From a virus (lineage: Duplodnaviria > Caudoviricetes): a stretch of 64,000 bases of DNA. The first letter of the stretch is position 1. Each line of letters begins with the position of its first letter. Location: positions 1 through 64,000 of IMG/VR virus record IMGVR_UViG_3300025470_000019, one strand, 5' to 3'. The notes under the pieces are model-generated. The model ran no database searches and was not told where the DNA came from. It saw only the letters and a program-made list of their open reading frames with translations. Shown in pieces: positions 15,938-53,859 of the stretch. Position numbers and translations under genes: made by a program.

Positions 15938-16011
15938 AAGCTGGTGCTCCTCTTAGCATTAGAGTGGTTGGAAGCGGGAACTTCGCGAACCACAATCATC
16001 CTTTATTTATA
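15938..16011 (-). promoter_or_regulatory. Late promoter plus conserved two-hairpin endonuclease leader (copy 1 of 6)
   Basis: TATAAATA..GTGGT-TCGCG-AAG-loop-CTT-CCA-ACCAC-TCTAA-TGCT-aagagg-AGCA-CCAGC-tt-ATG. Confidence 0.75.
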
Positions 16012-16045
16012 TAATTCTAACTTTGAACAGAAAGGAGAGACACCA

Positions 16046-16988
16046 ATGATACTTGCAAAAGCACCCTTACGTGTCAGTTTTTTTCGGTGGTGGGTCGGAT
16101 ATTCCGGCTCACTACCTACAGTGGGGAGGCTCGACCATTTCGACAGCGATCGACAAGTATGTCTATGTCGCTGTAGGTAAGACTCCTCAAAACCACATCA
16201 AGGTCAACTACTCCAAGCAGGAACTGGTGACCAAGGTCGACGATCTTCAAAATGAGATTGTCAAAAATGCCCTGAAGTATTTTGGGATTAAGAACAATAT
16301 CGAGATTACCACGTTTGCTGACATTCCTACGGTCGGAACAGGTCTAGCAGGTTCATCGGCATTCACCTGCGCATTGGTCGCTGCTCTTGCAGAATATTGC
16401 GGATTCTCTCGTTATAGCGAATATGAGCTAGCCGAGGCTGCTTGTCAAATTGAAATTCTAATGTGTGGTTGGAATATTGGAAAGCAGGATCAGTATGCTT
16501 CGGCTTTTGGTGGCATGAATTATATTCGCTACCTAAGCAGCGATAAGGTTAATGTCAGTAAGATGGATCCCAACGGAATTGATCACAACATGCTGCTGAT
16601 TCCGACGAACATTCAGCGCCATGCTGCTGAGGTCTTGAATAAGATCGACTTCAACGACAAGACTCCAGTCATCAGAGAACTTTCTCACATGGCTGATCTC
16701 CAATATCGTTATGAACCTACTCTTGAGCTTTATGGTCCTCTGCTGAACGAAGCATGGAAATATAAGAAACAGATGGAAGGCGGTATCAGCAATCCAGAGA
16801 TTGATGAGATGTATGAGCGTTGTAGAGAGGCTGGTGCGACTGGAGCGAAACTTCTTGGTGCAGGTGGTGGTGGCTATATGCTGGCTCTGACCGACAACAA
16901 GAATAAGATCAGAGCTGAATTCAACGATAGATGTTGCCTCGAAGTAAGAGTTGCTCTTGACGGAGCCAAGGTTGTTTACAAGGATTGA
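16046..16988 (+). CDS. hddA: GHMP sugar kinase (heptose-7-phosphate kinase, HddA-like); +1 frameshift in a T7 run near 5' end
   Basis: MILAKAPLRVSF|FGGGSD, GTGLAGSSA, GKQDQY, KLLGAGGGG; frames differ across 16078-16084. Confidence 0.85.
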
Positions 16989-16990
16989 CT

Positions 16991-17587
16991 ATGACGAAGC
17001 CACTGATTAAATTTTCCGATTATACCGATGCTGTGTTTGACGCAATGGAGAGTGTAGATGAACATTCTCTTGCTCTTGTTTATCTAACTCTGAACGAAGC
17101 TCGAGTGAACGGAAGAACTATTTTCGTTTGCGGTAATGGTGGTTCGGCTGCTATTGCTAATCACCTTGTCTGCGACTGTATGAAGGGTGTTGCAGTAGAT
17201 ACTGGAAATCATATGCATGTGACTTCGCTGTCTTGTAACGTTCCTTTGATGACTGCCATCGCTAACGATATCGGCTATGAGGATGTGTTTGCAAAGCAGC
17301 TAGAATGGCAAGCTGTTCCTGGGGATGTTTTGATCGCGATTAGCTCTAGCGGCAACTCGCCCAATATCTATAACGCACTTCTTTCGGCCAAGGATGTTGG
17401 AGTTAAGACGATCGCGATTTCTGGATTTACTGGTGGACAGGCTTGTGCTATTGCTGACCACTCTGTCCATATTAAGTCAGATAACTATGGTGTGATCGAA
17501 GACGTATCTCAGTCGGTGATGCATTATATCGCCCAGTGTCTTCGTCGAAATCTTTCCAATAAGAAACCAGAGGACATCATATACTGA
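16991..17587 (+). CDS. gmhA: Phosphoheptose isomerase (SIS), GmhA-like
   Basis: CGNGGSAA, TAIANDIGY, ISSSGNSPN, SGFTGG, IED. Confidence 0.92.
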   Translation: MTKPLIKFSDYTDAVFDAMESVDEHSLALVYLTLNEARVNGRTIFVCGNGGSAAIANHLVCDCMKGVAVDTGNHMHVTSLSCNVPLMTAIANDIGYEDVFAKQLEWQAVPGDVLIAISSSGNSPNIYNALLSAKDVGVKTIAISGFTGGQACAIADHSVHIKSDNYGVIEDVSQSVMHYIAQCLRRNLSNKKPEDIIY

Positions 17588-18063: not shown

Positions 18064-18099
18064 TGCTTTACCTTTTTTCAAATCTAGGTTAGAATGAAT
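18064..18099 (+). promoter_or_regulatory. Early-type promoter
   Basis: TGCTTTACC-TTTTTTCAAATCTAGGT-TAGAATGAAT. Confidence 0.8.
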
Positions 18100-18127
18100 T
18101 ATAAGGTTGATTGAAAGGAAGTTTGAA

Positions 18128-18472: not shown

Positions 18473-18474
18473 TT

Positions 18475-20970: not shown

Positions 20971-20971
20971 A

Positions 20972-24672: not shown

Positions 24673-24985
24673 TTCATTCTTTGAACCAGAAATGGTGAAC
24701 GAAGTCCAGACGCTGGATGAGAAGATCAAACAGCGTAGGACGCAAATGCTGATACATTCCTATCGGTATTATGTCCTAGACGACCCTGTGATCACTGACG
24801 AAAAGTGGCAACAGTGGGCTGATGAGTTGGTCGAGCTTCAAAAGCGAAAGCTGAAGATTGGCTTCTACGATAAAGAATTCTCTGACTGGACTGGTGCTAC
24901 TGGAATGCATCTTCCATTCGATAAGTGGATTAGAGACAAGGTAAAATACCTAAATAAAATATCAGTTGTTGACAATCAACAATAA
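24662..24985 (+). CDS. Stand-alone NAD-dependent DNA ligase domain Ia-like protein
   Basis: HSYRYYVLDDPVITDEKWQQWADELVEL. Confidence 0.7.
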   Translation: MTLDSFFEPEMVNEVQTLDEKIKQRRTQMLIHSYRYYVLDDPVITDEKWQQWADELVELQKRKLKIGFYDKEFSDWTGATGMHLPFDKWIRDKVKYLNKISVVDNQQ

Positions 24986-25318
24986 AGGCGGAAAGACTGG
25001 GGTTCGACTCCCCACACCTCCACCATCATTCATTACCTTTGTGGTGCCTGCTGGGCAGCAATGGCTTTCTCGGTTACTCGTAAGTGATCATAACGGTAAC
25101 TGTGGATAGTGAAAAGGTCTCCTAGCGCAAGGAGATACCCAACGTGATGGATGATGATGGGGGTGAACTGGGATCGATTTTCGTGTAATAGGGCGATCGA
25201 GACTGATTCGGTGGTCGAGCGACCAAAAACAATAAATGCTAACGATAACGAAAGCATTGCTCTAGCTGCATAAGCTAGACTAGGGTTCGGTGGGTACCTC
25301 GTAACAGAAACCCACCAC
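24960..25318 (+). ncRNA. ssrA: tmRNA, circularly permuted two-piece (alphaproteobacterial type); tag ANDNESIALAA at 25238-25273
   Basis: T-arm plus CACCTCC-A-CCA (ends 25025) precedes the 5' acceptor GGGGGTG (25159), with G3:U70; tag ORF; terminal GGTGGGT...ACCCACC hairpin. Confidence 0.9.
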
Positions 25319-25322
25319 TTAT

Positions 25323-25349: not shown

Positions 25350-25384
25350 TAAATATTTTGATAAATAAAACATAAGGATAAGAT

Positions 25385-26020
25385 ATGTTTTATACAATAT
25401 ATTCGATAACAAATTTATCAGATGGCAAAATATATATCGGAAAGCATAAAACCAATAATTTAGATGATGGTTATATGGGTTCTGGTACACTGATTCGTAG
25501 AGCCATTTCTAAACATGGTATCGAAAACTTTAAAAAAGAAATTTTATTCGTTTTCGATAACAAAAACGAAATGGACTTAAAAGAAAAAGAATTAGTCAAT
25601 GAAAATTTTGTTTTGTCTACGTTAACCTACAACTTATCTTTAGGTGGAAAAGGTGGGTGGAATCCTAGTAAATCTAAAGTCGCATTTCTTGGAAAAAAGC
25701 ATTCCGAAGAAAGTAGAAAACGAATAGGTGAAGCTAGTAGGAATAGAATTCATTCACCAGAATCCAAAAAGAAAATGAGTGATTCTCGTAGGGGTGTCTC
25801 AAAACCCAATACATCTATTTCTCTTAAAGGAAAAATGAAAACAGATGAACATAAAAAGAAAATAAGTGAATCGCTGAAAAATAGAGATCCTAAAAAAGTT
25901 CCTAAGGGTTATAAAAGAAAATCTAAACAGATATGGATCAATAACGGAGAATATTCTACCAGAATTAACTCAGAGTTGTTGATTCCAAACGGATTCATCA
26001 AAGGAAGATTAAAGAAATAG
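25385..26020 (+). CDS. GIY-YIG (Seg-like) homing endonuclease with NUMOD3
   Basis: YTIYSITNLSDGKIYIGKH...GYMGSG; KKHSEESRK. Confidence 0.9.
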   Translation: MFYTIYSITNLSDGKIYIGKHKTNNLDDGYMGSGTLIRRAISKHGIENFKKEILFVFDNKNEMDLKEKELVNENFVLSTLTYNLSLGGKGGWNPSKSKVAFLGKKHSEESRKRIGEASRNRIHSPESKKKMSDSRRGVSKPNTSISLKGKMKTDEHKKKISESLKNRDPKKVPKGYKRKSKQIWINNGEYSTRINSELLIPNGFIKGRLKK

Positions 26021-26021: not shown

Positions 26022-26097
26022 TGCTCTCTGGTGCAATTGGCAGCACGTCTGACTCTGACTCAGAAGGTTCCAGGTTCGACCCCTGGGAGAGCATCCA
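26022..26097 (+). tRNA. tRNA-Gln(CUG)
   Basis: TGCTCTC/GAGAGCA, TCTGA-CTCTGAC-TCAGA, CCA. Confidence 0.9.
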
Positions 26098-26106
26098 ATT
26101 TTTTAG

Positions 26107-26135
26107 TTGACATCACAGTCAACACCGTGTATAAT
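26107..26135 (+). promoter_or_regulatory. Perfect sigma70 promoter TTGACA-17-TATAAT
   Basis: TTGACA tcacagtcaacaccgtg TATAAT. Confidence 0.8.
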
Positions 26136-26152
26136 ACGAAAACAATTTACAT

Positions 26153-26226
26153 TGCCCCTTCCTCTAATGGTAAGAGAGCGGACTTTGAATCCGTCAATCT
26201 TGGTTCGAATCCAGTCGGGGGATCCA
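26153..26226 (+). tRNA. tRNA-Gln(UUG), chimeric acceptor and T stems
   Basis: GCGGA-CTTTGAA-TCCGT; 5' TGCCCCT mispairs with 3' CGGGGGA at two positions. Confidence 0.7.
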
Positions 26227-28068: not shown

Positions 28069-29019
28069 ATGTCAAACTTTGCATCTCTTAAGAATTCGAG
28101 CCAAGATTCTCTCCGTAAGCTGACCGAACAGGTTAGCAAGATGACCTCCCCATCGGGCGGTAAGGAAGAAGAAGCCAACAAGTTCTGGAAGGCTACCGTC
28201 GATAAGACTGGTAACGGCTCGGCAATCCTTCGCTTTCTCCCTGCACCTGACGGTGAAGATGTTCCTTTCGTTCGTTTCTGGGACCATGGTTTCCAGGGAC
28301 CAACCGGAAAGTGGTATATCGAGAAGTCGCGCACTTCGCTCGGCGAGAAGGATCCTGTAGCTGAATACAACTCGAAGCTGTGGCGCGAATCTGATAATGA
28401 TGATTCTCCGCAGCGCAAGCAGGCTCGCAAGCAGAAGCGTCGCGAGCATTTCGTTGCCAATATTCTCGTTGTCAAGGATCCTGCTAATCCTGAAAACAAC
28501 GGCAAGGTCTTCCTCTACGATTTCGGTAAGAAGATTTTCAATAAGCTCAACGAACTGATGCATCCGATCGATGACGGTATCGAAGAAGTTAAGGCGATCG
28601 ATCCATTTAATATGTGGTCGGGTGCTGACTTCTACCTTCGCATTCGTAACGTCGATGGCTACCGTAACTACGACAAGTCGAGCTTCGGTGATCAGAAGGC
28701 AATCAGTGATGACGATGACGCTCTTGAAGCTATCTGGAAGTCTGAGCATTCGCTGAAGGATTTCGTTGACCCTAAGAACTACAAGTCGTTCGAGGATCTC
28801 GAAAAGCGTCTGAACGAAGTTCTTGACCTCAATACTCATATCCGTCGCACTGATGAGCCTATGGCTCGTGCTGAGGCTCCTGTCCAAAAGACAGCCCAGC
28901 CAGCTGCTTCTACCTTTGACGTTGAAGAAGATGATGTTCCTTGGAGCAACTCTAGTGCAGCTACGACCGAAGAAGACGATGACATGTCGTTTTTTCGCCG
29001 ACTAGCCGAGGAAGATTGA
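28069..29019 (+). CDS. gp32: Single-stranded DNA-binding protein gp32
   Basis: DKTGNGSAILRFLP, HGFQGPTGKWYIE, GADF.L.IR...NYDKS, acidic tail. Confidence 0.95.
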   Translation: MSNFASLKNSSQDSLRKLTEQVSKMTSPSGGKEEEANKFWKATVDKTGNGSAILRFLPAPDGEDVPFVRFWDHGFQGPTGKWYIEKSRTSLGEKDPVAEYNSKLWRESDNDDSPQRKQARKQKRREHFVANILVVKDPANPENNGKVFLYDFGKKIFNKLNELMHPIDDGIEEVKAIDPFNMWSGADFYLRIRNVDGYRNYDKSSFGDQKAISDDDDALEAIWKSEHSLKDFVDPKNYKSFEDLEKRLNEVLDLNTHIRRTDEPMARAEAPVQKTAQPAASTFDVEEDDVPWSNSSAATTEEDDDMSFFRRLAEED

Positions 29020-29020: not shown

Positions 29021-29617
29021 TTAGTCTAACTGGGATAGATGTTTATTTGATTTTAGATGTCTATCCCAGTTCATACTACCTTTAATAGACCTTGCACAAA
29101 CTTTACAATGATTAACAACCCTATTTTTTGCGGACTCTGATAATTTTTTCTTTGTTGCTTCTGAATGTTTAATTCCAACCGTTCTTTTTAGGTTCTCATG
29201 AACAGGCTTGCCTTTCAATCTATTTGATCTTTCTTTCTTGGCCTGTTCTGAGTGTTTACATCCTTTTGGTTTTCCTTTTATCATTGGCAAACCAAGGACG
29301 AGTCTCACTTCGTTTGTCATGCCCTTTGTGTGGCTCCAAGAACCGTGGCCTCCAACTGTCATGTTATACGTGTCATCTCTGCGTATAAAGGCATCATTGA
29401 CAATCTGAGATTCTTTCAGATACATATCTTCTTCGGAATCCAAATAAAATAGTATTGTTTTTGTGAAAGATTCTACACCATATTTTTTTATAGCGGACTT
29501 TATTGCGGTTCCTGAACCCATATATCTATCTTGTGGATTATGCGTTTTATGTGAACCTACATATATTTTATCATTGACTTTATTTTTGACTTCATATACA
29601 GTATAATAAATAGGCAT
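29021..29617 (-). CDS. GIY-YIG homing endonuclease, antisense
   Basis: YTVYEVKNKVNDKIYVGSH...YMGSG; KHSE repeats. Confidence 0.9.
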   Translation of the reverse strand: MPIYYTVYEVKNKVNDKIYVGSHKTHNPQDRYMGSGTAIKSAIKKYGVESFTKTILFYLDSEEDMYLKESQIVNDAFIRRDDTYNMTVGGHGSWSHTKGMTNEVRLVLGLPMIKGKPKGCKHSEQAKKERSNRLKGKPVHENLKRTVGIKHSEATKKKLSESAKNRVVNHCKVCARSIKGSMNWDRHLKSNKHLSQLD

Positions 29618-29687
29618 GCTGATTCTCCTACCATAGAGTTAGAGTGACTGGATACAGGAATATCGCGAGTCACATAAAATTATTTAG
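29618..29687 (-). promoter_or_regulatory. Late promoter plus conserved two-hairpin leader (copy 2)
   Basis: CTAAATA..GTGAC-TCGCG-ATA-loop-TAT-CCA-GTCAC-TCTAA-CTCT..GGAGAA-TCAGC-ATG. Confidence 0.75.
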
Positions 29688-29714
29688 TAAAACAAGACTA
29701 AATAACGAGCTAGT

Positions 29715-29764: not shown

Positions 29765-29854
29765 GGAGGTGTGGCAGAGCTTGGTTTATTGCACCTGACT
29801 TGAAATCAGACGTACTGAAAGGTACCGTGGGTTCGAATCCTACCACCTCCGCCA
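29765..29854 (+). tRNA. tRNA-Ser(UGA)
   Basis: GGAGGTG/CACCTCC, CTTGAAA loop, long variable arm, CCA. Confidence 0.92.
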
Positions 29855-29882
29855 TCTATTTTAATAATATTAATAATTTTAT

Positions 29883-29956
29883 TGCCCTTTCGTCTAGCGG
29901 TAGGACCTCGCACTTTGACTGCGAAGACCGAGGTTCGAATCCTCGCGGGGCATCCA
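29883..29956 (+). tRNA. tRNA-Gln(UUG)
   Basis: TCGCA-CTTTGAC-TGCGA, canonical T-arm, CCA. Confidence 0.88.
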
Positions 29957-35253: not shown

Positions 35254-35317
35254 TATAAATAGATGGTAGTCGCGGATGGCGGTCCCACTACCACTAATAC
35301 TAACTGGAGTATCAGCT
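35254..35317 (+). promoter_or_regulatory. Late promoter plus conserved two-hairpin leader (copy 3)
   Basis: TATAAATA..GGTAG-TCGCG-GAT-ggcg-GTC-CCA-CTACC-ACTAA-TACT-aactgg-AGTA-TCAGC-t-ATG. Confidence 0.75.
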
Positions 35318-35866
35318 ATGATATATTTATATATTAAACAACACCAAAAAACTGGTCTGAAATATTTCGGAAAAACCGTAAAAGCCAATCCATTCAAATA
35401 TAATGGTTCAGGCAGTTATTGGTATAAACATCTAAAAGAACATGGAAAACACATTAGAACCATAGAAATATGGGGGTTCGATGACCAACAGTTGTGCACA
35501 CAATTTGCTTTAAAATTTTCTAAAGACAATAATATAGTAGAATCTAAAGAATGGGCGAATTTAGTCCCTGAAGATGGTATAAGTGGAGGCAGCATCGGTA
35601 GCCGTAAAGGAAGAAAATTATCAGAACAAACAAAAGCAAAAATGTCTAAAACTAGAAAAGGATACAAATATGGTCCTGAGTTTGCAGAAAGATTTAGACA
35701 AAGATTATTAGGTGTTCCTAAAACTGAAGAACAAAAACGCAAAATGCGCTTGGCAAAATTAGGCAAACCTCAATCCGAAGAACACAAAATGAAACGATCG
35801 GAAGCTATGAAACGAGCACACGCTATTAAAAAGTTATCCCTAAATCTTTCTCAGTTACGATCTTAA
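35318..35866 (+). CDS. GIY-YIG-type homing endonuclease, antisense
   Basis: IYLYIKQH..TGLKYFGKT...Y.GSG.YW; start reassigned to ATG after leader. Confidence 0.88.
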   Translation: MIYLYIKQHQKTGLKYFGKTVKANPFKYNGSGSYWYKHLKEHGKHIRTIEIWGFDDQQLCTQFALKFSKDNNIVESKEWANLVPEDGISGGSIGSRKGRKLSEQTKAKMSKTRKGYKYGPEFAERFRQRLLGVPKTEEQKRKMRLAKLGKPQSEEHKMKRSEAMKRAHAIKKLSLNLSQLRS

Positions 35867-37160: not shown

Positions 37161-37163
37161 CCA

Positions 37164-37760
37164 ATGTCTAGTTATTTTGTCAATTTCCCAAGAATCAAAT
37201 ATTTCAACACGGTCGCTAAGAATATCACTCTTCGCGCTGGCTTCGTCAAGAAGCTAAAGGAAGATTCTTCTGCGTTCTATCCATACCAAATCGGAGAAGG
37301 CGAGAGAGCTGACACCGTCGCGGCGATGTATTATGACAATCCTGATTTTGATTGGTTGGTGTATCTAGCTAACGACATCGTCGACCCATACACTCAATGG
37401 CCAAAGAGTCAGCAAGAGTTTAACGACTATATTGTAAAGAAGTATGGATCACAACAGGCTGCACGTTCTCAGGTAGCTTTCTATAGAAAGAACCCAGACA
37501 TTGCATATGTTAAGAATGACGGAACTGATTATTCGACTTCAGCCACTTCTGACGGAACTTATACTATTTCGGTAACAAATGAAGACATTCGGATTACTGC
37601 AGACACTTATGCTTTGATTAGCGATAAATCAAACTACTATCCTGTATATGCATATGATTATGAAATTGAGCTAAATGAAGAAAAGAGAAACATTGTTCTG
37701 ATCGACGAAGATTATGCGAATAGAACATGGATGCAATTGAGAGATCTATTAAATGGCTGA
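37164..37760 (+). CDS. gp53: Baseplate wedge protein gp53
   Basis: YF..FP.I.Y, ERADTVA..YY.....WLV.LAN.I.DP..QWP. Confidence 0.9.
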   Translation: MSSYFVNFPRIKYFNTVAKNITLRAGFVKKLKEDSSAFYPYQIGEGERADTVAAMYYDNPDFDWLVYLANDIVDPYTQWPKSQQEFNDYIVKKYGSQQAARSQVAFYRKNPDIAYVKNDGTDYSTSATSDGTYTISVTNEDIRITADTYALISDKSNYYPVYAYDYEIELNEEKRNIVLIDEDYANRTWMQLRDLLNG

Positions 37761-39312
37761 GAATGCATCTGGAAGTGCTGTAGATACTCTTGGGTTCATG
37801 AAGCGTTTTGTTGTAACGCTCGTTAGCCCAGACAATAAACAAAGAAAAGTTATTACTCGAATGGTCGATACACTGACGATCACCGAGGACATCTTCAAAA
37901 ATAGTTTGTATGGCGCTGTTAGAATTATTGACGCTGTCGACCTCCTTGGCGGCGGACCATTTGACGCAAAGTCAAAGGACGCTGCAGTTTTTCCTATCAT
38001 CGGAGAAGAGTTTTTAGAAATTGAAATTCTATTGGACGGAAAGCCACCAGTCAAACTTCGTTTCGCCATCTATCGCATTTCCGATATTATCTACAAAGAT
38101 AACAACACCAAGAAAGAATATACTCTTGAGTTCTGCAGCGAAGAGCATCTGATTGATGCCACGACTGCGATCATGAAGTCATACAATCAGCCAAATAGTG
38201 ACACTGCTAAGGCGATTCTTAAAGACTACCTCAAGAATGAATCGACAGATAACGGCAAATTCAAAAAGAATATCGTTAACCTGCAGCCAACCAAAGGACC
38301 ACAGAAAGTGGTTATCCCTAGACTGAGCCCATTCCAGGCAATGGAGTTTCTGGCTCGTCGTTCTATCGCTCAGGATACGTTTGAGTCAGGTTCTTATCTG
38401 TTCTTCGAGAACTTCGATGGGTTCAGTTTCTGTGATGTCGAATACCTTATCAAGAAGGGTGTCGACAAAGCCAAAGCAAACAAGAAAGATTATGAATATT
38501 TCTACGAATCAACTCTGACTGCCAATCAGAAGAAAGAAGATCCGCAGAGACAATTCAAAACTATCACCACGATGCAACATACAGTATCTTTCGATACAAT
38601 CCAAAAACTCAAATTTGGTATGTATGAGTCTGACGTTATTCTGTATGACTTCATCAATCACAAAACAATTCCGACAAGATTTAGATTCGCAAATAATGAC
38701 ACGAGAGACAATAACAAAACATTGACCCTCGGCAATAAAGAAGATAAGTCATATCCCGAAAACAGTCTTACCTTTTTGAAGAGCTATATCTCCAATGATG
38801 ATAAGGATGTGAAATATACTCGCAAATTCTTTATCGCAAAAGACACATCATCCACCACTCTTGATAACTACTTGGATAATGTTTATCCAGCCAGAGCTTC
38901 ATACTTCACAAGACTAGCTCAGAACATGTATACCATCAATACATTTGGTGATACAACTATCAGAGCTGGCGATGTAATCATGTTAAACATCCCAGAAAGT
39001 CAAGGCGAGAATAACGACGGCGGTATCGACAAATATCAATCAGGATATTATTTGATTGGAACAATTCGCCATATCTTCTCAGCCACTACATATATGACAA
39101 AGATGGACATTTACAAGAATGCTATTGGCGCTCAGTTGACGAATACTGAAGAAGCTAAGAATACCAAGGTTAAGCCAACCGACAATAAAGCGATTGCCGA
39201 GCAGGCTCCAGCTGATCAGTCTCCTGAAGCTGTAGAAGCGGCGGATCCCGAGGACCCTAACCAGAAAAATTCAAGCCCATCAGTTGTTGGATTCTTGAAA
39301 GGACTATTATGA
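37753..39312 (+). CDS. Baseplate hub protein, gp27-like
   Basis: EDIF...G...I.D, IIGEE, FFENFDG, GD...RAGDVI, G.YLI..IRH; position between gp53 and gp5. Confidence 0.7.
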   Translation: MAENASGSAVDTLGFMKRFVVTLVSPDNKQRKVITRMVDTLTITEDIFKNSLYGAVRIIDAVDLLGGGPFDAKSKDAAVFPIIGEEFLEIEILLDGKPPVKLRFAIYRISDIIYKDNNTKKEYTLEFCSEEHLIDATTAIMKSYNQPNSDTAKAILKDYLKNESTDNGKFKKNIVNLQPTKGPQKVVIPRLSPFQAMEFLARRSIAQDTFESGSYLFFENFDGFSFCDVEYLIKKGVDKAKANKKDYEYFYESTLTANQKKEDPQRQFKTITTMQHTVSFDTIQKLKFGMYESDVILYDFINHKTIPTRFRFANNDTRDNNKTLTLGNKEDKSYPENSLTFLKSYISNDDKDVKYTRKFFIAKDTSSTTLDNYLDNVYPARASYFTRLAQNMYTINTFGDTTIRAGDVIMLNIPESQGENNDGGIDKYQSGYYLIGTIRHIFSATTYMTKMDIYKNAIGAQLTNTEEAKNTKVKPTDNKAIAEQAPADQSPEAVEAADPEDPNQKNSSPSVVGFLKGLL

Positions 39313-40337
39313 TTGGAAGAACTGAACATCTTATAAACGATCCGCACTTTATCGGCGTAGATAAGTTCGTACTCTTTTTCGGTGTTGTTGAAGATAGAGA
39401 TGATCCTCTACAGCTAGGTAGAGTCCGTATTAGAATTTTCGGCGTCCATCCAGACGACAAGTCATTAGTTGCAACGGAAGATCTTCCATGGTCGTTCCCT
39501 ATTATGCCAATTACTGCGCCTCAATACGGTGGCGTAGGTTCTGGTCCAGTTGGAATTATGCCAGGTTCAACAGTCGTTGGATTCTTTGCTGATGGTTTAG
39601 ACAGACAGATTCCTATGCATTTTGGCACTATGTCTGGCGGCACTGGACACTTTGCTGCAGGAGCGAATGGCGACGCTGCTAATATGGATCCGGCGACTCC
39701 ATATAATCCTGACGGTATTTCTGGCTCTATTGATCCAAAATCCTCAATGGTTGTTAAGGGTGTTCAGCTCGGAAAGATTCTTCTAAGCAATTTCGCCTCT
39801 CAAGGTCTTAAGCCACATCATGCTGCTGCTATCTGCGGTAATCTAGGAGAAGAATCTGGCGGGTTCCCTGTGCCTGCTATTCATGAAAGAGGTAAAGGTG
39901 TTGGCGGTAGCCCAAGCACTCCACCGTCACGTAGCTCTGTTGGTGTTGGTTATGGTTGGGGACAATGGACAAACAACAATCGACTGACCAAGTTCCTCGA
40001 TTGGTGCGACAAATATCACCTTGAGCCATCCGATCAGCAAACTCAAATTAAGTACTTCACATATGAAATCACCACTGTCCCACCATACAGCAAACACTTT
40101 CAGACTTTGATGAAGGGCGGAACAGCAACCATTAATAATACTAGATTCACCAAGCCAAATGGTACTTACAATCTAGATGACGTTGATCAGGCGACTGCTT
40201 GGTGGATGTGGGTATATGAAGTGCCAGGAGCTCCTAATCTTGCAGCAAGACAGAAGATCGCTAGATCAATTCGCGATCAGTTAGTGGGCGGATCCGCTGG
40301 ATCTTCAGTAAGAACAAACGGCAAACCTGAGAAATAG
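39309..40337 (+). CDS. gp5: gp5 N-terminal OB-fold fused to phage-tail-lysozyme domain
   Basis: FFGVVEDRDDPLQLGRVRIRIFG...VVGFFADG; AAAICGNLGEESG, GYGWGQWT. Confidence 0.85.
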   Translation: MIGRTEHLINDPHFIGVDKFVLFFGVVEDRDDPLQLGRVRIRIFGVHPDDKSLVATEDLPWSFPIMPITAPQYGGVGSGPVGIMPGSTVVGFFADGLDRQIPMHFGTMSGGTGHFAAGANGDAANMDPATPYNPDGISGSIDPKSSMVVKGVQLGKILLSNFASQGLKPHHAAAICGNLGEESGGFPVPAIHERGKGVGGSPSTPPSRSSVGVGYGWGQWTNNNRLTKFLDWCDKYHLEPSDQQTQIKYFTYEITTVPPYSKHFQTLMKGGTATINNTRFTKPNGTYNLDDVDQATAWWMWVYEVPGAPNLAARQKIARSIRDQLVGGSAGSSVRTNGKPEK

Positions 40338-40345
40338 GATATAAC

Positions 40346-42928
40346 ATGGTCGCATCGAGTAATACAATTCCAGTCGCTCCACCTTCTCCAACCCAACCAG
40401 GAGCAGATCAGCCTGTAATCAAGTCAGGCGAATCTCATTATGACGTTGATATTGGAGTTAGTTGGGCGCCAACATCAAACACAGTAGCTGGTGGTGGCGT
40501 CGGCGTTTCTCCTCCACCATATCCATCATACACAACTGTCAACAGACCGCCTGATCCGCCATCAAATGCACTTGATCCATTACAAGCTCTTGGCGCACCA
40601 CCTTCACCTCTTGTCAAATTAATCGGTAATACAAAAATTACCACCATGCTTGATGTTGCAACAAACAAGCTGGTGACTACGGTTATTGATACAACAACAA
40701 ATCAGCTTCTTGGTGCGATGTCTGGATTAGGTTCTGATCCTACTGCGCTTGTATCTCAGCTGACTCAGAATTCAACTGGCGCAAAAAATGCACTATCGGT
40801 AGCCGAAACTTCTCTTGCAAGTGCTCAATCTATTCTTGCTGATCCAAATGCAACTGATGCACAGAAAGCTCTGGCTCAGGTAAATATTGATTCAGCAAAC
40901 AAAACGATCGCATCATTATCATCACAGACCACAGCTCTTACAGAAGCTGCGGCTCATTTAACTGATAATTTCTCTTTTGACGTATCCCAAATTACTGATT
41001 TTGCTTCTAAAATTGATAGCATAGCAAATTCATTGGCCAGCGGAATTGATCCTGTTTCTCTTGCTCTAAAGCAAGGCGAAGAAATATACAATCAAGCTGC
41101 ATCTATCTTTGGCAGCACTCAAGGAACTGGCAGCTCATTACCTTTCCTAGAGCAAGTCAAGACTCTTGATACATCTTCTGTAGAGATTATTCCGTTCACA
41201 AAACGAACAAACATCAACACAGTTTCTAGTATCGACAATGGCGGTAATGATAAGGCATATTTCCCTACCGTTCCTGCGGCGAACAATATCGTTAACCCAG
41301 GAGCAAACAGTGTCGCTAATCCAAGCGATCGTGTTACTAATACAATCGCCAATGAACCTGTTAGAGAATTCGAAGGGTTATATCCATACAATAAATCAAA
41401 CAAGAGCGAAAGCGGACATCTTCTTGAAGTTGATGACACTCCTGGCAAAGAAAGAATCCTAACTGAACATAAGAGTGGCACCTATCATGAAATGACTGAG
41501 CATGGTGACTTGATCACTAAAGTGGTTAATGATAATTATTTGATCATTGCCGAGAACGAAATCGTTACCATTCAAGGCAAAGCCAACCTACGTATTCTAG
41601 GCGATGTTAACGTCAAGATCGGTGGTGCTATGATTATTAACCCTGATGGTGGTGTTTATGTCGCCACGAAGGGAGACTTCAGAGTCCATGCTAGGTCTAT
41701 TCATATGGAAGCTGATTCAGGAGACGTCAACGTCAAGGCATCAGGCAAGACTAGAATTACGTCAGGCGACGAGCTTCATGTAAATTCAAAGAACAATATT
41801 ATTGAATCCTCAGGCAAGACATCTATGAAGTCTGGTGGCACGAATACGATTCAAGCGGCAGGAATTAACTTCAACTCAAGCAAGGATGTTAATCTTCGTG
41901 CGGATGGCATTATCGCTTCCGCTTCGACCGGAGACACTACTATCAACAGTGCTGGAAACTTGAACGCGAAGGCTGCTGGATCAATCAACCAGAAGAGTGC
42001 GGGAAGTAATTATATCACTGCGTCTTCTCTTGAGCTCAATGCAACTCTTAATGCAAAGGCAACCACTAATCTTCAAGGAACAGACCCTCAAGGTGGAATT
42101 GTTACTCCAATCAATGGCTCTGGTGCTGCTGACGCTGGCGAAGGAACTGCTGCTGGTGTATTCGTTGCTGATGATGCAGATACGGCAAAGGGTTCAGGTA
42201 TCACTCACTCGGTCAACGTTGATGACTTCCTACAGAATCTAGACGATGAGGATGACGTAACGAGAGCAGCAGCGATTAAACATGCTGTGGAAACTGGAGT
42301 CATTAGTCAGGCTGACGCAGACAAGATGAATGCACCTCCTGGGACACCATCAGCGAGCGATACATCAGGAGCAGGAAACGTTTCGCCTAGCGTATCAAAG
42401 GCTACTGTTGGTGATCTTGGTAGCCATGCGCCAGCCGACAATCTCAAATTGTCAAAATATTTTACTGTTGCTATGTTGAGCAGTCACTGTGAAGCTGGTA
42501 GCCATGTCATTGGACCGCAGCTTGGATTGTCTGTGACAGATATTACTGGCAACCTACAGCTACTGGCCCAGAACTGTCTCGATAAGATCAAGGATCAATA
42601 TCCTGATATGAGAATCAGCTCTGGTTTCAGAGATCTAGCTTCAAATAACAGAACTGCTGGCGCATCTAAGACTTCTCAGCACTTGAAGGGTGAAGCTGTT
42701 GATATCAAATTCAGTCACGCTGATAAAGCTCAGTCCCAATACTATGAAATAGCCAAATGGATCAAGAACAATATCCCATTTGACCAGCTAATTTTGGAGT
42801 ATGGTATGCCTTCAACCGACCGTCCATGGATTCACATTTCGTTTACAACTGGACAAAAGCATAGTCCAAGAGTGTCAACGAAAGTTCACGGCAAGACGGT
42901 CGGCGAAGGTTTACATCAGATGAGGTAA
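40346..42928 (+). CDS. gp5: gp5 C-terminal spike region plus M15-type peptidase
   Basis: YPYNK...ESGH..EVDDTPG.ERI...H.SGT; beta-helix-like repeats; ISSGFR, SQHLKGEAVDI, WIHISF. Confidence 0.8.
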   Translation: MVASSNTIPVAPPSPTQPGADQPVIKSGESHYDVDIGVSWAPTSNTVAGGGVGVSPPPYPSYTTVNRPPDPPSNALDPLQALGAPPSPLVKLIGNTKITTMLDVATNKLVTTVIDTTTNQLLGAMSGLGSDPTALVSQLTQNSTGAKNALSVAETSLASAQSILADPNATDAQKALAQVNIDSANKTIASLSSQTTALTEAAAHLTDNFSFDVSQITDFASKIDSIANSLASGIDPVSLALKQGEEIYNQAASIFGSTQGTGSSLPFLEQVKTLDTSSVEIIPFTKRTNINTVSSIDNGGNDKAYFPTVPAANNIVNPGANSVANPSDRVTNTIANEPVREFEGLYPYNKSNKSESGHLLEVDDTPGKERILTEHKSGTYHEMTEHGDLITKVVNDNYLIIAENEIVTIQGKANLRILGDVNVKIGGAMIINPDGGVYVATKGDFRVHARSIHMEADSGDVNVKASGKTRITSGDELHVNSKNNIIESSGKTSMKSGGTNTIQAAGINFNSSKDVNLRADGIIASASTGDTTINSAGNLNAKAAGSINQKSAGSNYITASSLELNATLNAKATTNLQGTDPQGGIVTPINGSGAADAGEGTAAGVFVADDADTAKGSGITHSVNVDDFLQNLDDEDDVTRAAAIKHAVETGVISQADADKMNAPPGTPSASDTSGAGNVSPSVSKATVGDLGSHAPADNLKLSKYFTVAMLSSHCEAGSHVIGPQLGLSVTDITGNLQLLAQNCLDKIKDQYPDMRISSGFRDLASNNRTAGASKTSQHLKGEAVDIKFSHADKAQSQYYEIAKWIKNNIPFDQLILEYGMPSTDRPWIHISFTTGQKHSPRVSTKVHGKTVGEGLHQMR

Positions 42929-43917: not shown

Positions 43918-44289
43918 TTAACGCGGCGCTTGCCTCGACACAGTAGTTGAATGTATCTTTTGCGCCTTAAAGTATTTTTGAAATATATCCTGAACCAAAT
44001 CAGAATCGTATGGCTTACAAGAAAATATATCTACATAAGCAGAATTTCTATCTGCAGGACAAAAATGAGCTGATACATTAGAGTCTTGCAGAAGCTGATA
44101 GATAGAATAGCCTATTTTATTTGGATCGTTCGTATCACACCAGATAATATTAAGATTCCCAATTTTAACCATTTCAATAGATTCCAAAAGATCATCAACA
44201 AAGGTCTGAAATACTTGTTTGTCCATAATAGCAGATGAATCACATTCTGCGGCATCAATCATTGTAATCCAACCCCATGGCTTGCTCAT
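43918..44289 (-). CDS. speD: S-adenosylmethionine decarboxylase
   Basis: G.S..QLLQDSNVSAHF...YVDIFSC. Confidence 0.8.
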   Translation of the reverse strand: MSKPWGWITMIDAAECDSSAIMDKQVFQTFVDDLLESIEMVKIGNLNIIWCDTNDPNKIGYSIYQLLQDSNVSAHFCPADRNSAYVDIFSCKPYDSDLVQDIFQKYFKAQKIHSTTVSRQAPR

Positions 44290-44307
44290 TATTAGAATCC
44301 TTTTTAC

Positions 44308-44372
44308 CTAAATAAAAGTGGTTCGCGATGTACCACCATCCAACCACACTAACGTCACTGGAGACAATCAGC
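44308..44372 (+). promoter_or_regulatory. Late promoter plus conserved two-hairpin leader (copy 4)
   Basis: CTAAATA..GTGGT-TCGCG-ATG-loop-CAT-CCA-ACCAC-ACTAA-CGTC-actgga-GACA-ATCAGC-ATG. Confidence 0.75.
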
Positions 44373-45017
44373 ATGATTATTTATCTTTATGTAAAACGCC
44401 ATAAAATTACTGGTCTGAAATATTTTGGTAAAACCATACAAAATCCATGGATTTATCCTGGATCGGGCAAATATTGGAACCGACATCTAAAAGTCCACGA
44501 AAACAATGTTGAGACTATAGAAGTTTGGGGATTTGACGATCAAATTTTATGTTGTGAGTTTGCGCAAAAATATTCAAAATTACATAATATCGTTGAATCC
44601 AAAGATTGGGCCAACCTCATTCCGGAAACAGGAACTGATGGAGGATTTACTACATCTAGAGAACAACAAAAGAAAATTTGGGAAAATTCAGCTTTGCGCG
44701 AAAAACACCATAACAGCATAAAACGCTCATGGACTGAAAAACGAAAAGTGATCGCTTCAAATAATACATCAGAACAATGGAAACGTCAGGATAAATCTTT
44801 AATAGCAGAAAAAATGGTCAAAACCAAAAAAGAAAAATACCCTGACGGTAATCCAAATGTGGGCGTTTATGTAAGAACGGAAGAAATTAAACACAAAATG
44901 AAACTTGCGGCTAAAGAACGAGATTTAATCAAGATAGTTTGCGAACAATGTTCGAAAGAATCTAATAGATCTAATTATGCTCGCTGGCACGGATCTAATT
45001 GCAAAACTTTACGCTAG
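44373..45017 (+). CDS. GIY-YIG-type homing endonuclease, antisense
   Basis: IYLYVKRH..TGLKYFGKT...YPGSGKYW; C-terminal Zn motif. Confidence 0.88.
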   Translation: MIIYLYVKRHKITGLKYFGKTIQNPWIYPGSGKYWNRHLKVHENNVETIEVWGFDDQILCCEFAQKYSKLHNIVESKDWANLIPETGTDGGFTTSREQQKKIWENSALREKHHNSIKRSWTEKRKVIASNNTSEQWKRQDKSLIAEKMVKTKKEKYPDGNPNVGVYVRTEEIKHKMKLAAKERDLIKIVCEQCSKESNRSNYARWHGSNCKTLR

Positions 45018-48043: not shown

Positions 48044-48364
48044 TTATTCCTCATCGTTATCAGGATTGTCGATCATCAATTCAATTTCAATTTCTTCGTC
48101 TTTGATAATCTGTTTAGCAAGTTCTTGAAAGGGATGCTCGACACCAAGGCATGAGCAAATAAATGACTCCATAGCCTCGAGAAAGAGAATCATCTCTGGT
48201 GTTTCCATCATATGCGATGGATCAATACCCATGTCATCTAAATCATTAACAATATCGTTAGCAAAATCGCAAGTCAATTGGTGAGCATAATCAGTGTTAT
48301 TAAAAGCGAGGGTTGCTTCTTTCTCTTTCTTCTTTGAGACAAAATCAACCACATTGTTTGCCAT
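48044..48364 (-). CDS. Hypothetical protein
   Basis: NNVVDF; HPFQELA. Confidence 0.65.
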   Translation of the reverse strand: MANNVVDFVSKKKEKEATLAFNNTDYAHQLTCDFANDIVNDLDDMGIDPSHMMETPEMILFLEAMESFICSCLGVEHPFQELAKQIIKDEEIEIELMIDNPDNDEE

Positions 48365-49443
48365 TAGGTCACCTTCAGGAGAATAGTTTCAGAATTAATC
48401 CTACCGTTCAAAGGAGAACCAGCAGTCTTCACTGTATCTAGGAACTTTCTGAGACCTACCTTACCCAAGCCAAAGAATTCCTTCAGCTGCTCCTCCGGCT
48501 TGCGCAGGGTCTTGCTGATAGACAGCTCAGGGTCGAAGCCAGTGACCGAAGTCCCCTTGACCATGAATCCCTTTGGCGCATTGCTCTGATAGAAGCCGAT
48601 GCGTCGGGTCTTGGTGTTATAGACCCATAGCTGGGTTGCCCCGATGATCGACTGAGGATTGACCGAGGCGAGCTTCAGAGCCGAGTCAGTGGGCTGATAC
48701 TTGAGCCACTTGACCAGATCGGCGGCTGGCTTAATCTTGATCGCCTTTGGCGCACGAACCTTGACCACCTTCTTATTATTGAGGTAGCGATCAAAGTCAT
48801 GCATCATATCGCCATAGACTTTTTGCCAAAATTTGAGAGTCTTGCCGTAGCTTTCCTTGACCTGCTCATCACCAGACATAACTTCGTCATATGACCGCTT
48901 GTAGAAGTCTCGAAGAGTGTTAGCAGCCTGAACCGAAGCCTGCTTAGCTGTAAGGAAGTTATACATGCTAAACTCTGCGTTCTTGTCGAGTTCTTCTTCA
49001 GCATCACAGATCATATTGTCGATGTTACGCTTAATGCGATCCTGGATCGAGATGACGTTGGTCTTGACGGTCGGCTTGACTTCCTTGACGCCATGGCGAG
49101 CAAGCTCAGCGACCCTCTCGTTGAAGCGAGCCATGTAGGCTTCATTGAAGGTAGTCCCGTTAAGCATCATACGAGCCATCCAGCAGGTGGTCGTCGGAGT
49201 CCGCCACTCAATGGCAGAACGGATGTCGCGGATCAACTGAGGGTCGCGCCCATCCTTCTTGAGATATTCGATGAGCCAGCTCTTGCCCTTAGTCATGTCG
49301 GACATGTAGTTATACCAGTTGAAGGCATCCATCAACTGGGATTCGGTCGCCGAGCCGACGATGATAGGTTCGTCGCCATAATGTTTCTGGTCAAAGCTCT
49401 TGACCTGAGTTCTGGTTTTGATTTTCTTAGCTGCTTTGGCCAT
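48364..49443 (-). CDS. Conserved T4-like early protein of unknown function
   Basis: FNWYNY, LWVYNTKTR, SKTLRKPEEQL, NGRIN..TILL. Confidence 0.75.
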   Translation of the reverse strand: MAKAAKKIKTRTQVKSFDQKHYGDEPIIVGSATESQLMDAFNWYNYMSDMTKGKSWLIEYLKKDGRDPQLIRDIRSAIEWRTPTTTCWMARMMLNGTTFNEAYMARFNERVAELARHGVKEVKPTVKTNVISIQDRIKRNIDNMICDAEEELDKNAEFSMYNFLTAKQASVQAANTLRDFYKRSYDEVMSGDEQVKESYGKTLKFWQKVYGDMMHDFDRYLNNKKVVKVRAPKAIKIKPAADLVKWLKYQPTDSALKLASVNPQSIIGATQLWVYNTKTRRIGFYQSNAPKGFMVKGTSVTGFDPELSISKTLRKPEEQLKEFFGLGKVGLRKFLDTVKTAGSPLNGRINSETILLKVT

Positions 49444-49514: not shown

Positions 49515-49583
49515 TATAAATATGAATGTGGTTCGCGATGCGTCAACATCCAACCACTCTAACGCTTACAAGGAGCATCAGCC
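49515..49583 (+). promoter_or_regulatory. Late promoter plus conserved two-hairpin leader (copy 5)
   Basis: TATAAATA..GTGGT-TCGCG-ATG-loop-CAT-CCA-ACCAC-TCTAA-CGCT-tacaagg-AGCA-TCAGC-c-ATG. Confidence 0.75.
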
Positions 49584-50135
49584 ATGGCTATTTATAGAAA
49601 AATCTACGAACGACATTTTGGACCAATCCCTAAAGAAGAAAACGGTCGCACTTTCGAGATACACCATATAGATGGGGATCGGACTAATAACAGCATCAAT
49701 AACCTTAGATGCGTTTCCATTGAAGAACATTATAATATTCATTACGCCCAACAAGATTGGGGTGCATGCGGGGCGATCGCACAAAGAATGAATTTGTCGT
49801 TGGACAAAATTTCCAATCTAAGAAGCAAACATGCATTAGCAAGAGTAGCCGACGGAACAAATCCATTCTTAATCCTAAGTAAAATTAGATCTGAAAATGG
49901 AACTCATAATTGGATGACTGAACAACATTCAGAAAAAACAAGAGAGCGCCAAATTTCTAGATTAGAACTCGGGGATCACGAATTTTGTAAACGATCTGTT
50001 TGCCCTTACTGTGATAAGGAAGGGCAGTATGCCGTAATGGCCAGATGGCATTTCAATAATTGTAAATTGAATCCAAACTACACATCAAAACCCAAAAGAA
50101 AATATAAAAAGAAACGGCTGAATCAGACCACCTAG
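49584..50135 (+). CDS. HNH homing endonuclease, antisense
   Basis: YRKIYERHFGPIP...EIHHIDGDRTNNSINNL...EHY.IH; CPYC tail. Confidence 0.88.
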   Translation: MAIYRKIYERHFGPIPKEENGRTFEIHHIDGDRTNNSINNLRCVSIEEHYNIHYAQQDWGACGAIAQRMNLSLDKISNLRSKHALARVADGTNPFLILSKIRSENGTHNWMTEQHSEKTRERQISRLELGDHEFCKRSVCPYCDKEGQYAVMARWHFNNCKLNPNYTSKPKRKYKKKRLNQTT

Positions 50136-50863: not shown

Positions 50864-50886
50864 TATCTTTGGTACAAATCAGTGAG

Positions 50887-52695: not shown

Positions 52696-52774
52696 ATCAA
52701 TTCCTTTAGGGGATATCCGGTCTATTTATAATTCCCCAGCACAAACCTAAATATAAGAAACTGCGGAGACATGA

Positions 52775-53179
52775 ATGGCCAATTCACCGATTCAACAACA
52801 GACATTCTACTCGGATTTTCTCTTTGACTTCAAGAGGAATCCTGCCACTCATGACATCCTTACTGTAACAAATGAGCAGTCTGTTATTAACTCTATCAAG
52901 AAGATTCTCCGCACAAACAATTATGAAGTGCCATACAATCCTCGCTTCGGTGCCAATATTTACCATTATCTTTTTGAGCCATTTACAGAGTTTACACAGG
53001 ATGCGTTAGAGAAAGAAATTACATATGCAATCGAGGCATATGAACCAAGGGCGAATCTAATCAGTGTAACTGTTACTGGCAGTCCTGACGAGAACAGTAT
53101 CGACATCACCATTGTTGTGTCGGTAATAAATAATCCAAACCCAATAACAGTTACAACAACACTCAGCAGGATTCGCTAA
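52775..53179 (+). CDS. gp25: Baseplate wedge subunit gp25
   Basis: YSDF, VINSIKKILRT...E.PYNPRFG, AIEAYEPR. Confidence 0.92.
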   Translation: MANSPIQQQTFYSDFLFDFKRNPATHDILTVTNEQSVINSIKKILRTNNYEVPYNPRFGANIYHYLFEPFTEFTQDALEKEITYAIEAYEPRANLISVTVTGSPDENSIDITIVVSVINNPNPITVTTTLSRIR

Positions 53180-53789
53180 ACCTGCGTTTCTGAGACTCTC
53201 TCATTTTGAGTTTGGTCTCTTCAGTATGCGGCTTACGTTTCTTACCTTTTTGTGATTCAGATATTTTCTTTCTGGTGTATTCAGAGTGTTTACACCCAGT
53301 GCGAGAATTTCTCATCTTATTTCTTGTCTCTTTAGAAACAATTTTGTTTTTTTGTGATTCTGAATTTTTGAGTTTAGATTCTTCAGACACAGGAGCTCTA
53401 GTTTCCCAAGCTATGCGCATTTTGAATTTTGTTTCCTCAGAGCGTTTCTTTCCTGTTGCCGATTCTCTTATTTTTCTTCTGTGGTCCTCGGATAGTATTG
53501 TTCCATTTGGAGTGCCACTCAACCCATTTTCTTCTATCATATTAGCCCATTCGTCGGACTCAACAATATTGTTCTGTTTTGAGAAATTTAAAGCAAACTC
53601 TGTACATTTTTCTTGTTCATCAAACTCATACAATTCAATTGTGTTGATGTGTTCAATTCCATATTTCTTAACGTGCCTAAGCCAATACTTACCCGACCCT
53701 GTGTAAGTATATGGATTCTCTCTAATAGTTTTGCCAAAATACTTCAGACCCGTTATGGCATGCTGCTTAACGTACAGATAAATAATCAT
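53163..53789 (-). CDS. GIY-YIG-type homing endonuclease with NUMOD3 repeats, antisense
   Basis: IYLYVKQH..TGLKYFGKT...YTGSGKYW; HSEYTR/HTEETK. Confidence 0.88.
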   Translation of the reverse strand: MIIYLYVKQHAITGLKYFGKTIRENPYTYTGSGKYWLRHVKKYGIEHINTIELYEFDEQEKCTEFALNFSKQNNIVESDEWANMIEENGLSGTPNGTILSEDHRRKIRESATGKKRSEETKFKMRIAWETRAPVSEESKLKNSESQKNKIVSKETRNKMRNSRTGCKHSEYTRKKISESQKGKKRKPHTEETKLKMRESQKRRFSESC

Positions 53790-53859
53790 AGCTGGTTCTC
53801 CTTACTGGGCTAGAGGTAGTGGGTTTCTTGCCGGTCACCGCGACTACCAGTTATTTATA
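53790..53859 (-). promoter_or_regulatory. Late promoter plus conserved two-hairpin leader (copy 6); overlaps divergent late promoter for gp6 (53858-53865, +)
   Basis: TATAAATA..GGTAG-TCGCG-GT..AC-CCA-CTACC-TCTAG-CCC..AAGGAGAA-CCAGC-t-ATG. Confidence 0.7.

Follow-up and report, generated by a model that had tools for sequence, protein, structure and literature searches.

A covarying RNA element between two facing late-promoter boxes heads unrelated endonuclease genes in T4-like phages

Six endonuclease genes of a T4-like phage are each headed by a copy of the same ~85-base cassette, in which a structured core of ~58 nt lies between two late-promoter boxes that face each other, and the base-pair statistics of the core place its selected fold on the strand opposite to the endonuclease gene. 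The cassette was studied in a 64,000-nt stretch of DNA (hereafter, the window) comprising positions 1 to 64,000 of the virus record IMGVR_UViG_3300025470_000019 (Duplodnaviria; Caudoviricetes), an IMG/VR contig in which gp32 was found together with gp5, gp6 and other baseplate genes. The explanation that is favoured, at slightly better than even chances, is that of a bidirectional late cassette whose outward RNA would be the selected folded molecule and would be complementary to the ribosome site of the nuclease mRNA. The closest cultured relative of the phage is Caulobacter phage Cr30 (gp6 identity 43.5%), and a megablast search with the 6.6-kb structural-gene stretch at 36315-42928 returned no near-identical phage record.

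An earlier, sequence-only reading of the window had reported six copies of a two-hairpin leader, and all of them were found at the coordinates and on the strands given (Table 1). The invariant pattern TCGCG..CCA..NCTAR occurs at six sites in the window, namely these six, with 0.17 expected from shuffled sequences, and a stem-aware scan of the entire 79-kb contig located the same six and none further. A covariance model (R1) was built from the six copies and run with filters off; the copies scored 59–74 bits and all else ≤9 bits. Hairpin 1 covaries as had been claimed, being 98% paired in the six copies with 7 of its 11 pairs changed on both sides. No Rfam family covers the element on either strand: a gathering-threshold scan of the whole window with Rfam 15 yielded only transfer RNAs (tRNAs), a transfer-messenger RNA (tmRNA) and a manA motif, and a permissive scan of copy 5 yielded only chance matches (E 0.7–4, ≤16 bits). 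Additional copies were gathered from IMG/VR by a pattern scan, which gave at least 120 stretches, and R1 was applied to 81 loci among the matches listed, where it identified 45 further copies. The proposal of a portable, covarying element that marks a family of endonuclease cassettes is supported by these results.

The strand on which the fold is selected can be read from its wobble pairs. Sense-pair statistics were taken from 42 distinct IMG/VR copies and antisense statistics from an alignment (A4) of 43 sequences; fold stabilities were compared with RNAfold on 48 copies, and the box and terminator tests described below made use of up to 49. In the mRNA-sense reading, the paired columns hold no G.U and 38 A.C or C.A combinations, which, together with the G.U pairs present on the other strand, indicates that the fold is selected antisense to the endonuclease. 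Within A4, 95.0% of cells pair on the antisense strand, compared to 86.5% for the same pairs in sense. Hairpin 1 is 99.2% paired on the antisense strand, with 12 G.U pairs there versus 2 in sense. Covariation in this alignment is such that none of 500 shuffles reached the observed value, and every slid control collapsed.

The motifs (T/A)CTA(A/G) and (T/C)CAGC (CUAAC and YCAGC), which the sequence-only reading had placed outside its stems, can join in a helix of 8 bp only when read antisense, where CUGAUGCU pairs with AGCGUUAG. One G.U of this helix is kept in 41 of 43 copies; its second position is U.G in 20, U-A in 12 and C-G in 8, and never C.A, while its third is A-U in 35, G.U in 5 and G-C in 2. 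A combination that pairs only in sense is never present at these positions. RNAalifold independently gives the same antisense structure, and RNAfold finds the antisense strand to be the more stable one in 45/48 copies (mean −18.0 vs −13.2 kcal/mol, Wilcoxon p 4e-9).

The segments TCGCG and CCA, listed as invariant in the sequence-only reading, are not single-stranded. On the antisense strand they form a U-A pair, a bulge, a G-C pair, a second bulge and another G-C pair, with both bulged bases being G and located on the 3′ strand. These pairs covary in relatives (the copies found by the model plus L001, a copy found by protein similarity), G-C changing to A-U by way of G.U and U-A changing to C-G, and the two bulged G are unchanged in all of them. 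The fold of the outward RNA is thus a 5′ G, the CUGAUGCU/AGCGUUAG helix enclosing a loop with an anti-Shine-Dalgarno sequence, an A, hairpin 1, and a tail of A followed by U-rich sequence. Hairpin 1 itself consists of a 5-bp stem, the U-A and two G-C pairs with their invariant bulged G, a 3-bp stem, and a loop. The core spans the Shine-Dalgarno (SD) sequence and the ATG, and by its sequence the antisense RNA would itself be stably folded there, as a countertranscript should be. A hammerhead-like ribozyme (CUGA) was ruled out on inspection, since CUGAU is base-paired to GUUAG, a GAAA core is missing, and Rfam gave no match.

The conserved unit does not end at the ATG, as first described, and extends into codons 2–4 of the endonuclease gene as a TATTTA box. 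After the ATG, TA(T/C)TTA is present in 43/49 copies, 4–7 nt (mode 5) from CAGC. This embedded box uses all three reading frames (offsets 2, 0/3 and 1) and is, therefore, a nucleotide-level signal, which explains the common N-terminus of otherwise unrelated enzymes (M-x-I-Y in 34 copies, M-Y-L or M-I-Y-L in 7, and M-I-F-I in 2). Its complement is AATAAATA, TATAAATA or GATAAATA, i.e., (A/T/G)ATAAATA, in 28 copies, and the TAAATA core is found on the antisense strand in 35 of the 44 boxed copies, or in 34/48 by a copy-wide count. The sequence-only reading had also held that the element lies wholly downstream of its promoter, unlike I-TevI. That statement is incomplete, in that the promoter box is the exact complement of the conserved box in codons 2–4, which from its sequence may be a second late promoter directed against the first or, alternatively, may supply the 3′ arm of a helix that closes the element.

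Late promoters of T4 carry an 8-bp TATAAATA box at −13 to −6, the commonest variant of which has A at −13, giving AATAAATA (PMC2988020). The inward box of the cassette has the consensus NATAAATA, and the modal spacing between box and core is 5 nt on both sides. With a box at −13 to −6, this spacing predicts that +1 is the first base of the core in either direction, being the G of hairpin 1 inward and the G of GCUGA outward. In the window, TATAAATA is enriched 8-fold (19 occurrences vs 2.35 expected). Copies 1, 3 and 5 contribute three of these with their embedded boxes, and others precede gp32, gp6 and endonuclease genes that have no such leader. By consensus sequence, an outward-facing promoter is predicted within the first codons of the target gene.

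The element heads unrelated catalytic families, as had been noted. The gene of copy 1 encodes a GIY-YIG protein above the Pfam cut-off, that of copy 2 a GIY-YIG/SegE protein just under it, and that of copy 5 an HNH_3 protein. Copies 3, 4 and 6 precede members of one seg-like family with NUMOD3, of which the copy 3 gene matches phrog_314 (‘homing endonuclease’), and the copy 6 product resembles that of copy 2 (BLASTP E 3e-5). Nearly all of the listed IMG/VR copies have (N)ATAAATA 3–5 nt upstream and an ATG at their end. The open reading frames (ORFs) downstream are mostly homing endonuclease genes: among 42 scanned, including the six window genes, 28 matched phrog_314 and 17 matched phrog_655, with further matches to several HNH families, NUMOD3 and GIY-YIG. 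The same module, first codons included, is found before GIY-YIG-type, HNH and other endonuclease genes, a sharing between unrelated ORFs that resembles that of promoter early stem-loop (PeSL) cassettes and implies exchange by recombination. Of note is that a 23-amino acid (aa), Cys/His-rich C-terminal segment (52% identity, E 1e-4) is encoded both by the copy 4 seg-like gene and by the copy 5 HNH gene (44937-45005 and 49998-50066), which suggests from sequence that DNA-binding modules are shuffled between catalytic families.

A single 95-kb IMG/VR contig holds six copies, as many as the window. Cr30, a phage of Caulobacter crescentus CB15, possesses one (NC_025422.1:136931-137005), located before its annotated homing endonuclease gp204 and adjoining gp32, in the same layout as window copy 2. 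Sinorhizobium phage phiM9, which infects S. meliloti, possesses two (NC_028676.1:14773-14843 and 28180-28240), before gp031 and gp057. At the former locus (L150, NC_028676.1 14718-15329), gp031 is annotated as ‘NAD synthetase’ with a start upstream of the element, and this annotated start is probably wrong. At the latter (L151, NC_028676.1 28228-28917; HNH), the ATG lies upstream of CCAGC, so the box occupies another codon position than elsewhere. Model R2 had no match in T4, Aeh1, S-PM2, P-SSM2, KVP40, phiM12, HTVC008M, Melnitz, DLP_6, Pam2 or SRILMA, and a blastn search of cultured phages with one IMG/VR copy (L033) gave a 30-nt chance match only. The contigs behind L056, L033 and L020 (G001, G003 and G005, respectively) are 88–144 kb long with CheckV completeness of 25–41%, which implies carrier genomes of ~350 kb and, hence, that the cassette also occurs in jumbo T4-like phages.

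Orientation relative to neighbouring genes bears on what an outward RNA could do. All six cassettes of the window are inverted with respect to both flanking genes, and all five leaderless endonuclease genes are co-oriented with theirs. The rule that the module goes with inversion is true of this genome and is not universal, since ~70% of the listed IMG/VR cassettes are inverted and, in ~11 of 45, the cassette and the genes on either side all run in one direction. A split-gene setting of the kind described by Dassa et al. (PMC2677866) was rejected for five co-oriented cassettes, which are intergenic and flanked by ordinary phage genes (terminase, neck protein, nucleases). For 23 of 28 cassettes with a callable start, the SD and start of the neighbour lie 22–240 nt past the element (mostly ≤135 nt) with no TAAATA between, so that a phage gene often has the outward box as its closest late-promoter box. 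This is the situation at window copies 3, 4 and 5, and copy 6 has an added TATAAATA for gp6.

Under the bidirectional explanation, one late promoter points into the endonuclease gene, and the second box, on the other strand in codons 2–4, would point outward. Because each box lies ~5 nt from an end of the core, the predicted transcripts would start at opposite core edges and be complementary across it. On the endonuclease mRNA, the outward RNA would cover the ribosome site together with the start codon by base pairing, and the inward promoter would suffer interference from convergent transcription, the two promoters being ~70 bp apart; from this complementarity and the facing promoter, nuclease expression should be damped. 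When a cassette is inverted, the outward transcript would continue into the adjoining phage gene and provide it with a late promoter and a structured 5′ leader. Promoter and leader would thereby compensate for polarity caused by the insertion, tie the neighbour's expression to retention of the cassette and hinder its deletion, the same retention argument that was put forward by Edgell and colleagues for promoters embedded in the T4 seg and mob genes (PMC2988022). Firing of the outward box, and the existence, length and effect of its RNA, are predictions from the anatomy of the cassette. A bolder and rather unlikely version is a mobile addiction and insulation device, in which the outward RNA would silence the nuclease and give an essential neighbour its only late promoter and leader, with the two-G-bulge hairpin bound by a phage or host protein. 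If so, deletion of the selfish gene would be lethal, and the hairpin would be a new RNA-protein recognition module spreading with endonucleases across a clade of T4-like phages.

Several observations weigh against the bidirectional explanation. Co-oriented cassettes, where an outward RNA has no gene to serve, retain the embedded box at about the same frequency as the others, and supply of a promoter to the neighbour cannot, therefore, be its sole role. In 9/48 copies TAAATA is replaced by TAAGTA, from which efficient late transcription is unlikely. The d’Aubenton-Carafa discriminant for an intrinsic terminator at the hairpin and tail is negative in 49/49 copies. A strand-biased mutation spectrum could swell the A.C excess in hairpin 1, although it cannot yield the conserved G.U pairs of hairpin 2. 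Lastly, generic antisense action does not explain why both bulged G, with the pairs that flank them, are so strictly conserved, a pattern that hints at a protein partner or tertiary contact.

Four other explanations can be considered. In the first, the box would drive a discrete antisense RNA of ~65 nt, extending from the embedded box to hairpin 1′ and the U-rich tail, that acts purely as a countertranscript repressor in the manner of P22 sar or IS10 RNA-OUT. A promoter followed by two stem-loops and then ACUUUUAUUUAU is the layout of such an RNA, which would be fully complementary to the SD and AUG, and retention of the box in co-oriented cassettes also fits. The tail, however, consists of A, then C/U, then U-rich sequence; its first base is an invariant A, its mean T-score is 1.39, and it is not U-rich in several window copies. 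A consensus terminator scan left the hairpin and tail unflagged. With these failures added to the uniformly negative discriminant, the sequence does not support a separate small RNA resembling sar or RNA-OUT, and this explanation seems to have only a modest chance of being correct.

A mask of the I-TevI/mobE type is somewhat less probable still. In such a mask, the promoter box UAUAAAUA would pair with UAUUUAUA in codons 2–4 on a read-through RNA, producing a three-way junction that blocks the ribosome site until late initiation within the 5′ arm lifts the block; an antisense read-through RNA could form the same helix. The principle is established for I-TevI, segB and mobE (PMC2988022), and the boxes are exactly complementary in most copies. 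In addition, the TACTTA variants (9/48) would stay paired, as G.U, on the antisense strand only, and RNAfold closes the box helix in several antisense folds. Nevertheless, cognate boxes are no more stable together than non-cognate ones (permutation p 0.93 in sense, 0.65 in antisense) and show no covariation, and the helix would not itself cover the SD, where no stable sense hairpin sequestering the ribosome-binding site was found. With ~70% of cassettes inverted, including 6/6 in the window, sense read-through from upstream is not expected and a co-oriented early or middle transcription unit to supply it is lacking. Finally, two promoters would account for the same 5-nt distance at either end of the core, which would be a coincidence for a helix.

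Very unlikely is the explanation first offered for the element, namely a sense-strand cis-regulatory leader in which the mRNA folds hairpin 1 and an SD-containing hairpin 2, so that a ligand or protein switches translation. Hairpin 1 does form in sense too (97% paired), where it would be the extreme 5′ end of the late mRNA, and a GGAG lies in or beside a short stem at a fixed spacing to the ATG. However, the wobble pairs fall on the opposite strand, and hairpin 2 as drawn in sense is weak, having 3–4 bp and being only 62% paired in the window copies, with GGAG partly in the loop. This explanation would leave CUAAC and YCAGC unpaired and their invariance unaccounted for, with A.C clashes at two positions. 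The sense fold is not better than that of shuffled sequence (z −1.0 to −1.4), and no conserved pocket or alternative pairing, as sought for a riboswitch, was seen in the sense alignment.

Equally improbable is a DNA-level element, either single-stranded or cruciform DNA or a homology patch for swapping 5′ modules as in PeSL cassettes (PMC2839356, PMC4122927), because a patch needs no covariation, conserved bulges or strand asymmetry, recombination would homogenise the stems rather than let them covary, and no protein recognising such DNA travels with the cassette, even though G.T is likewise the best-tolerated mismatch in DNA hairpins, one module, extending over the first four codons, is found at the start of GIY-YIG-type and HNH genes that are unrelated, and the hairpin-1 stems of copies 4 and 5, whose ORFs are unrelated, are identical outside the loop.

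Large phages have homing endonucleases as their main selfish genes, and what keeps these harmless to the carrier has so far been established for one gene at a time, mostly in T4. The anatomy of the cassette points to a general, portable control scheme that would link nuclease repression to expression of a neighbouring gene, and Cr30 and phiM9 are cultured carriers in which it is testable. If true, it would explain the common M-x-I-Y N-terminus and help annotators to recognise free-standing endonuclease cassettes and to place their start codons correctly.

Table 1. Components of the six window copies and adjoining genes (window coordinates).
Feature	Position	Strand	Remarks
Copy 1 sense late-promoter box TATAAATA	16004..16011	-	
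Copy 1 structured core (hairpin 1, linker, hairpin 2, CAGC, ATG)	15935..15993	-	selected fold on +
Copy 1 outward box TATAAATA	15925..15932	+	within endonuclease codons 2-4
Copy 1 GIY-YIG endonuclease gene	15242..15937	-	231 aa; inverted vs both neighbours
Copy 2 sense late-promoter box ACTAAATA	29681..29688	-	
Copy 2 structured core	29615..29673	-	selected fold on +
Copy 2 outward box AATAAATA	29605..29612	+	codons 2-4
Copy 2 GIY-YIG/SegE-like endonuclease gene	29021..29617	-	198 aa; tail-to-tail with gp32 (28069-29019, +), as in Cr30
Copy 3 sense late-promoter box TATAAATA	35254..35261	+	
Copy 3 structured core	35265..35320	+	selected fold on -
Copy 3 outward box TATAAATA	35324..35331	-	codons 3-5
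Copy 3 neighbour gene	34638-35240	-	start 22 nt beyond element; no late box in between
Copy 3 seg-like endonuclease gene	35318..35866	+	182 aa; NUMOD3; phrog_314
Copy 4 sense late-promoter box CCTAAATA	44307..44314	+	
Copy 4 structured core	44318..44375	+	selected fold on -
Copy 4 outward box GATAAATA	44378..44385	-	codons 2-5
Copy 4 neighbour gene	43918-44289	-	start 28 nt beyond element
Copy 4 seg-like endonuclease gene	44373..45017	+	214 aa; N-terminal 100 aa 61% identical to copy 3
Copy 5 sense late-promoter box TATAAATA	49515..49522	+	
Copy 5 structured core	49528..49586	+	selected fold on -
Copy 5 outward box TATAAATA	49589..49596	-	codons 2-4
Copy 5 neighbour gene	48364-49443	-	start 84 nt beyond element
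Copy 5 HNH_3 endonuclease gene	49584..50135	+	183 aa; N-terminus M-A-I-Y supplied by shared cassette
Copy 6 sense late-promoter box TATAAATA	53852..53859	-	
Copy 6 structured core	53787..53848	-	longer hairpin-1 loop; selected fold on +
Copy 6 outward box GATAAATA	53777..53784	+	codons 2-5
Copy 6 seg-like endonuclease gene	53163..53789	-	208 aa; NUMOD3; between 134-aa gene and gp6

The copy 6 locus contains three late boxes inside 90 bp. At 53852-53865, two TATAAATA boxes stand back to back with a 2-nt overlap, the one on the minus strand serving the endonuclease gene and the one on the plus strand (53858-53865) facing gp6. The likely Cr30 counterparts of the 134-aa gene and gp6, as judged by position and size, are adjacent in that phage.

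The five leaderless endonuclease genes of the window (180-751, 1615-2146, 2901-3433, 9507-10228 and 25358-26020, all on the plus strand) have a late box, a short leader and an ATG only, and no embedded outward box is present in their first codons. At the endonuclease gene at 9534, a 7-bp hairpin, GTGCATA..TATGCAC, follows straight after the promoter and encloses the SD and ATG. Rfam identified at least 13 tRNA genes in three clusters (27-3487, 26022-26223 and 29765-29953, plus strand), interleaved with leaderless HNH and GIY-YIG genes. A permuted, two-piece tmRNA of the alpha type occurs at 24926-25319 (+; RF04321 103.9 bits, RF01849 80.6 bits), adjoining a GIY-YIG gene (25385-26020) and tRNA genes, and a manA RNA motif occurs at 3930-4104 (+; RF01745, 61.4 bits vs a gathering threshold of 55.2) in the early/tRNA region. 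The gp5-like baseplate hub/lysozyme is present as two adjacent ORFs, 39309-40337 and 40346-42928 (+), which match phrog_430 at profile positions 10-111 and 277-656.

Several known systems resemble the cassette. Cis-antisense control with face-to-face promoters is exemplified by sar RNA and Pant of phage P22 and by RNA-OUT and RNA-IN of IS10. Like these, the cassette has a (predicted) antisense promoter just inside the target gene, an RNA that would cover the ribosome-binding site and start codon, and the stable fold on the antisense strand. It differs in that both promoters are of the late class, there is no good terminator, the outward RNA would often enter a phage gene, and the bulges are invariant.

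The masks of T-even phages and Aeh1 (I-TevI, I-TevII, I-TevIII, segB and mobE; PMC2988022) likewise have a T4-type late promoter directly before a homing endonuclease gene, with the promoter complementary to a downstream segment and the nuclease kept low and late. In these masks, one idiosyncratic sense hairpin per gene sequesters the ribosome-binding site, whereas the cassette is a two-hairpin family that is spread across many phages, selected on the antisense strand and mostly inverted; T4 and Aeh1 are among the genomes in which R2 has no match. CfrI of cyanophage S-PM2 is a ~225-nt antisense RNA from a single locus that links an endonuclease gene to psbA (Millard et al. 2010, as summarised in PMC2984593). 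It, too, is an antisense RNA over a homing endonuclease gene of a T4-like phage, co-expressed in its case, and it differs in that R2 finds no match in sequence or structure in S-PM2.

In the PeSL cassettes of T4-type phages, an early (sigma-70-like) promoter is joined to a terminator stem-loop, and the ORFs that they flank are of many kinds (PMC2839356, PMC4122927). They are similar in being short, repeated composites of promoter and stem-loop that flank variable genes and are common to unrelated ORFs. In contrast, the cassette described here carries late boxes (NATAAATA) on both strands and extends into the first codons. It is restricted to endonuclease genes, and its bulged fold covaries and is not terminator-like. 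Dassa et al. (2009, PMC2677866) describe hairpins with TATAAATA and two MEME motifs before free-standing endonucleases in ‘fractured genes’ from marine metagenomes, and read them as a mobE-like sense hairpin. There, too, a conserved hairpin and late box precede GIY-YIG and other free-standing endonucleases of uncultured phages, and the motif may be the same as, or related to, the cassette. The T-even masks, the face-to-face antisense systems, CfrI and the PeSL cassettes each share one aspect with the cassette and none the fold, strand or two late promoters. The covarying RNA family, absent from Rfam and associated with unrelated endonuclease genes in uncultured T4-like phages and at least two cultured ones, is apparently undescribed.

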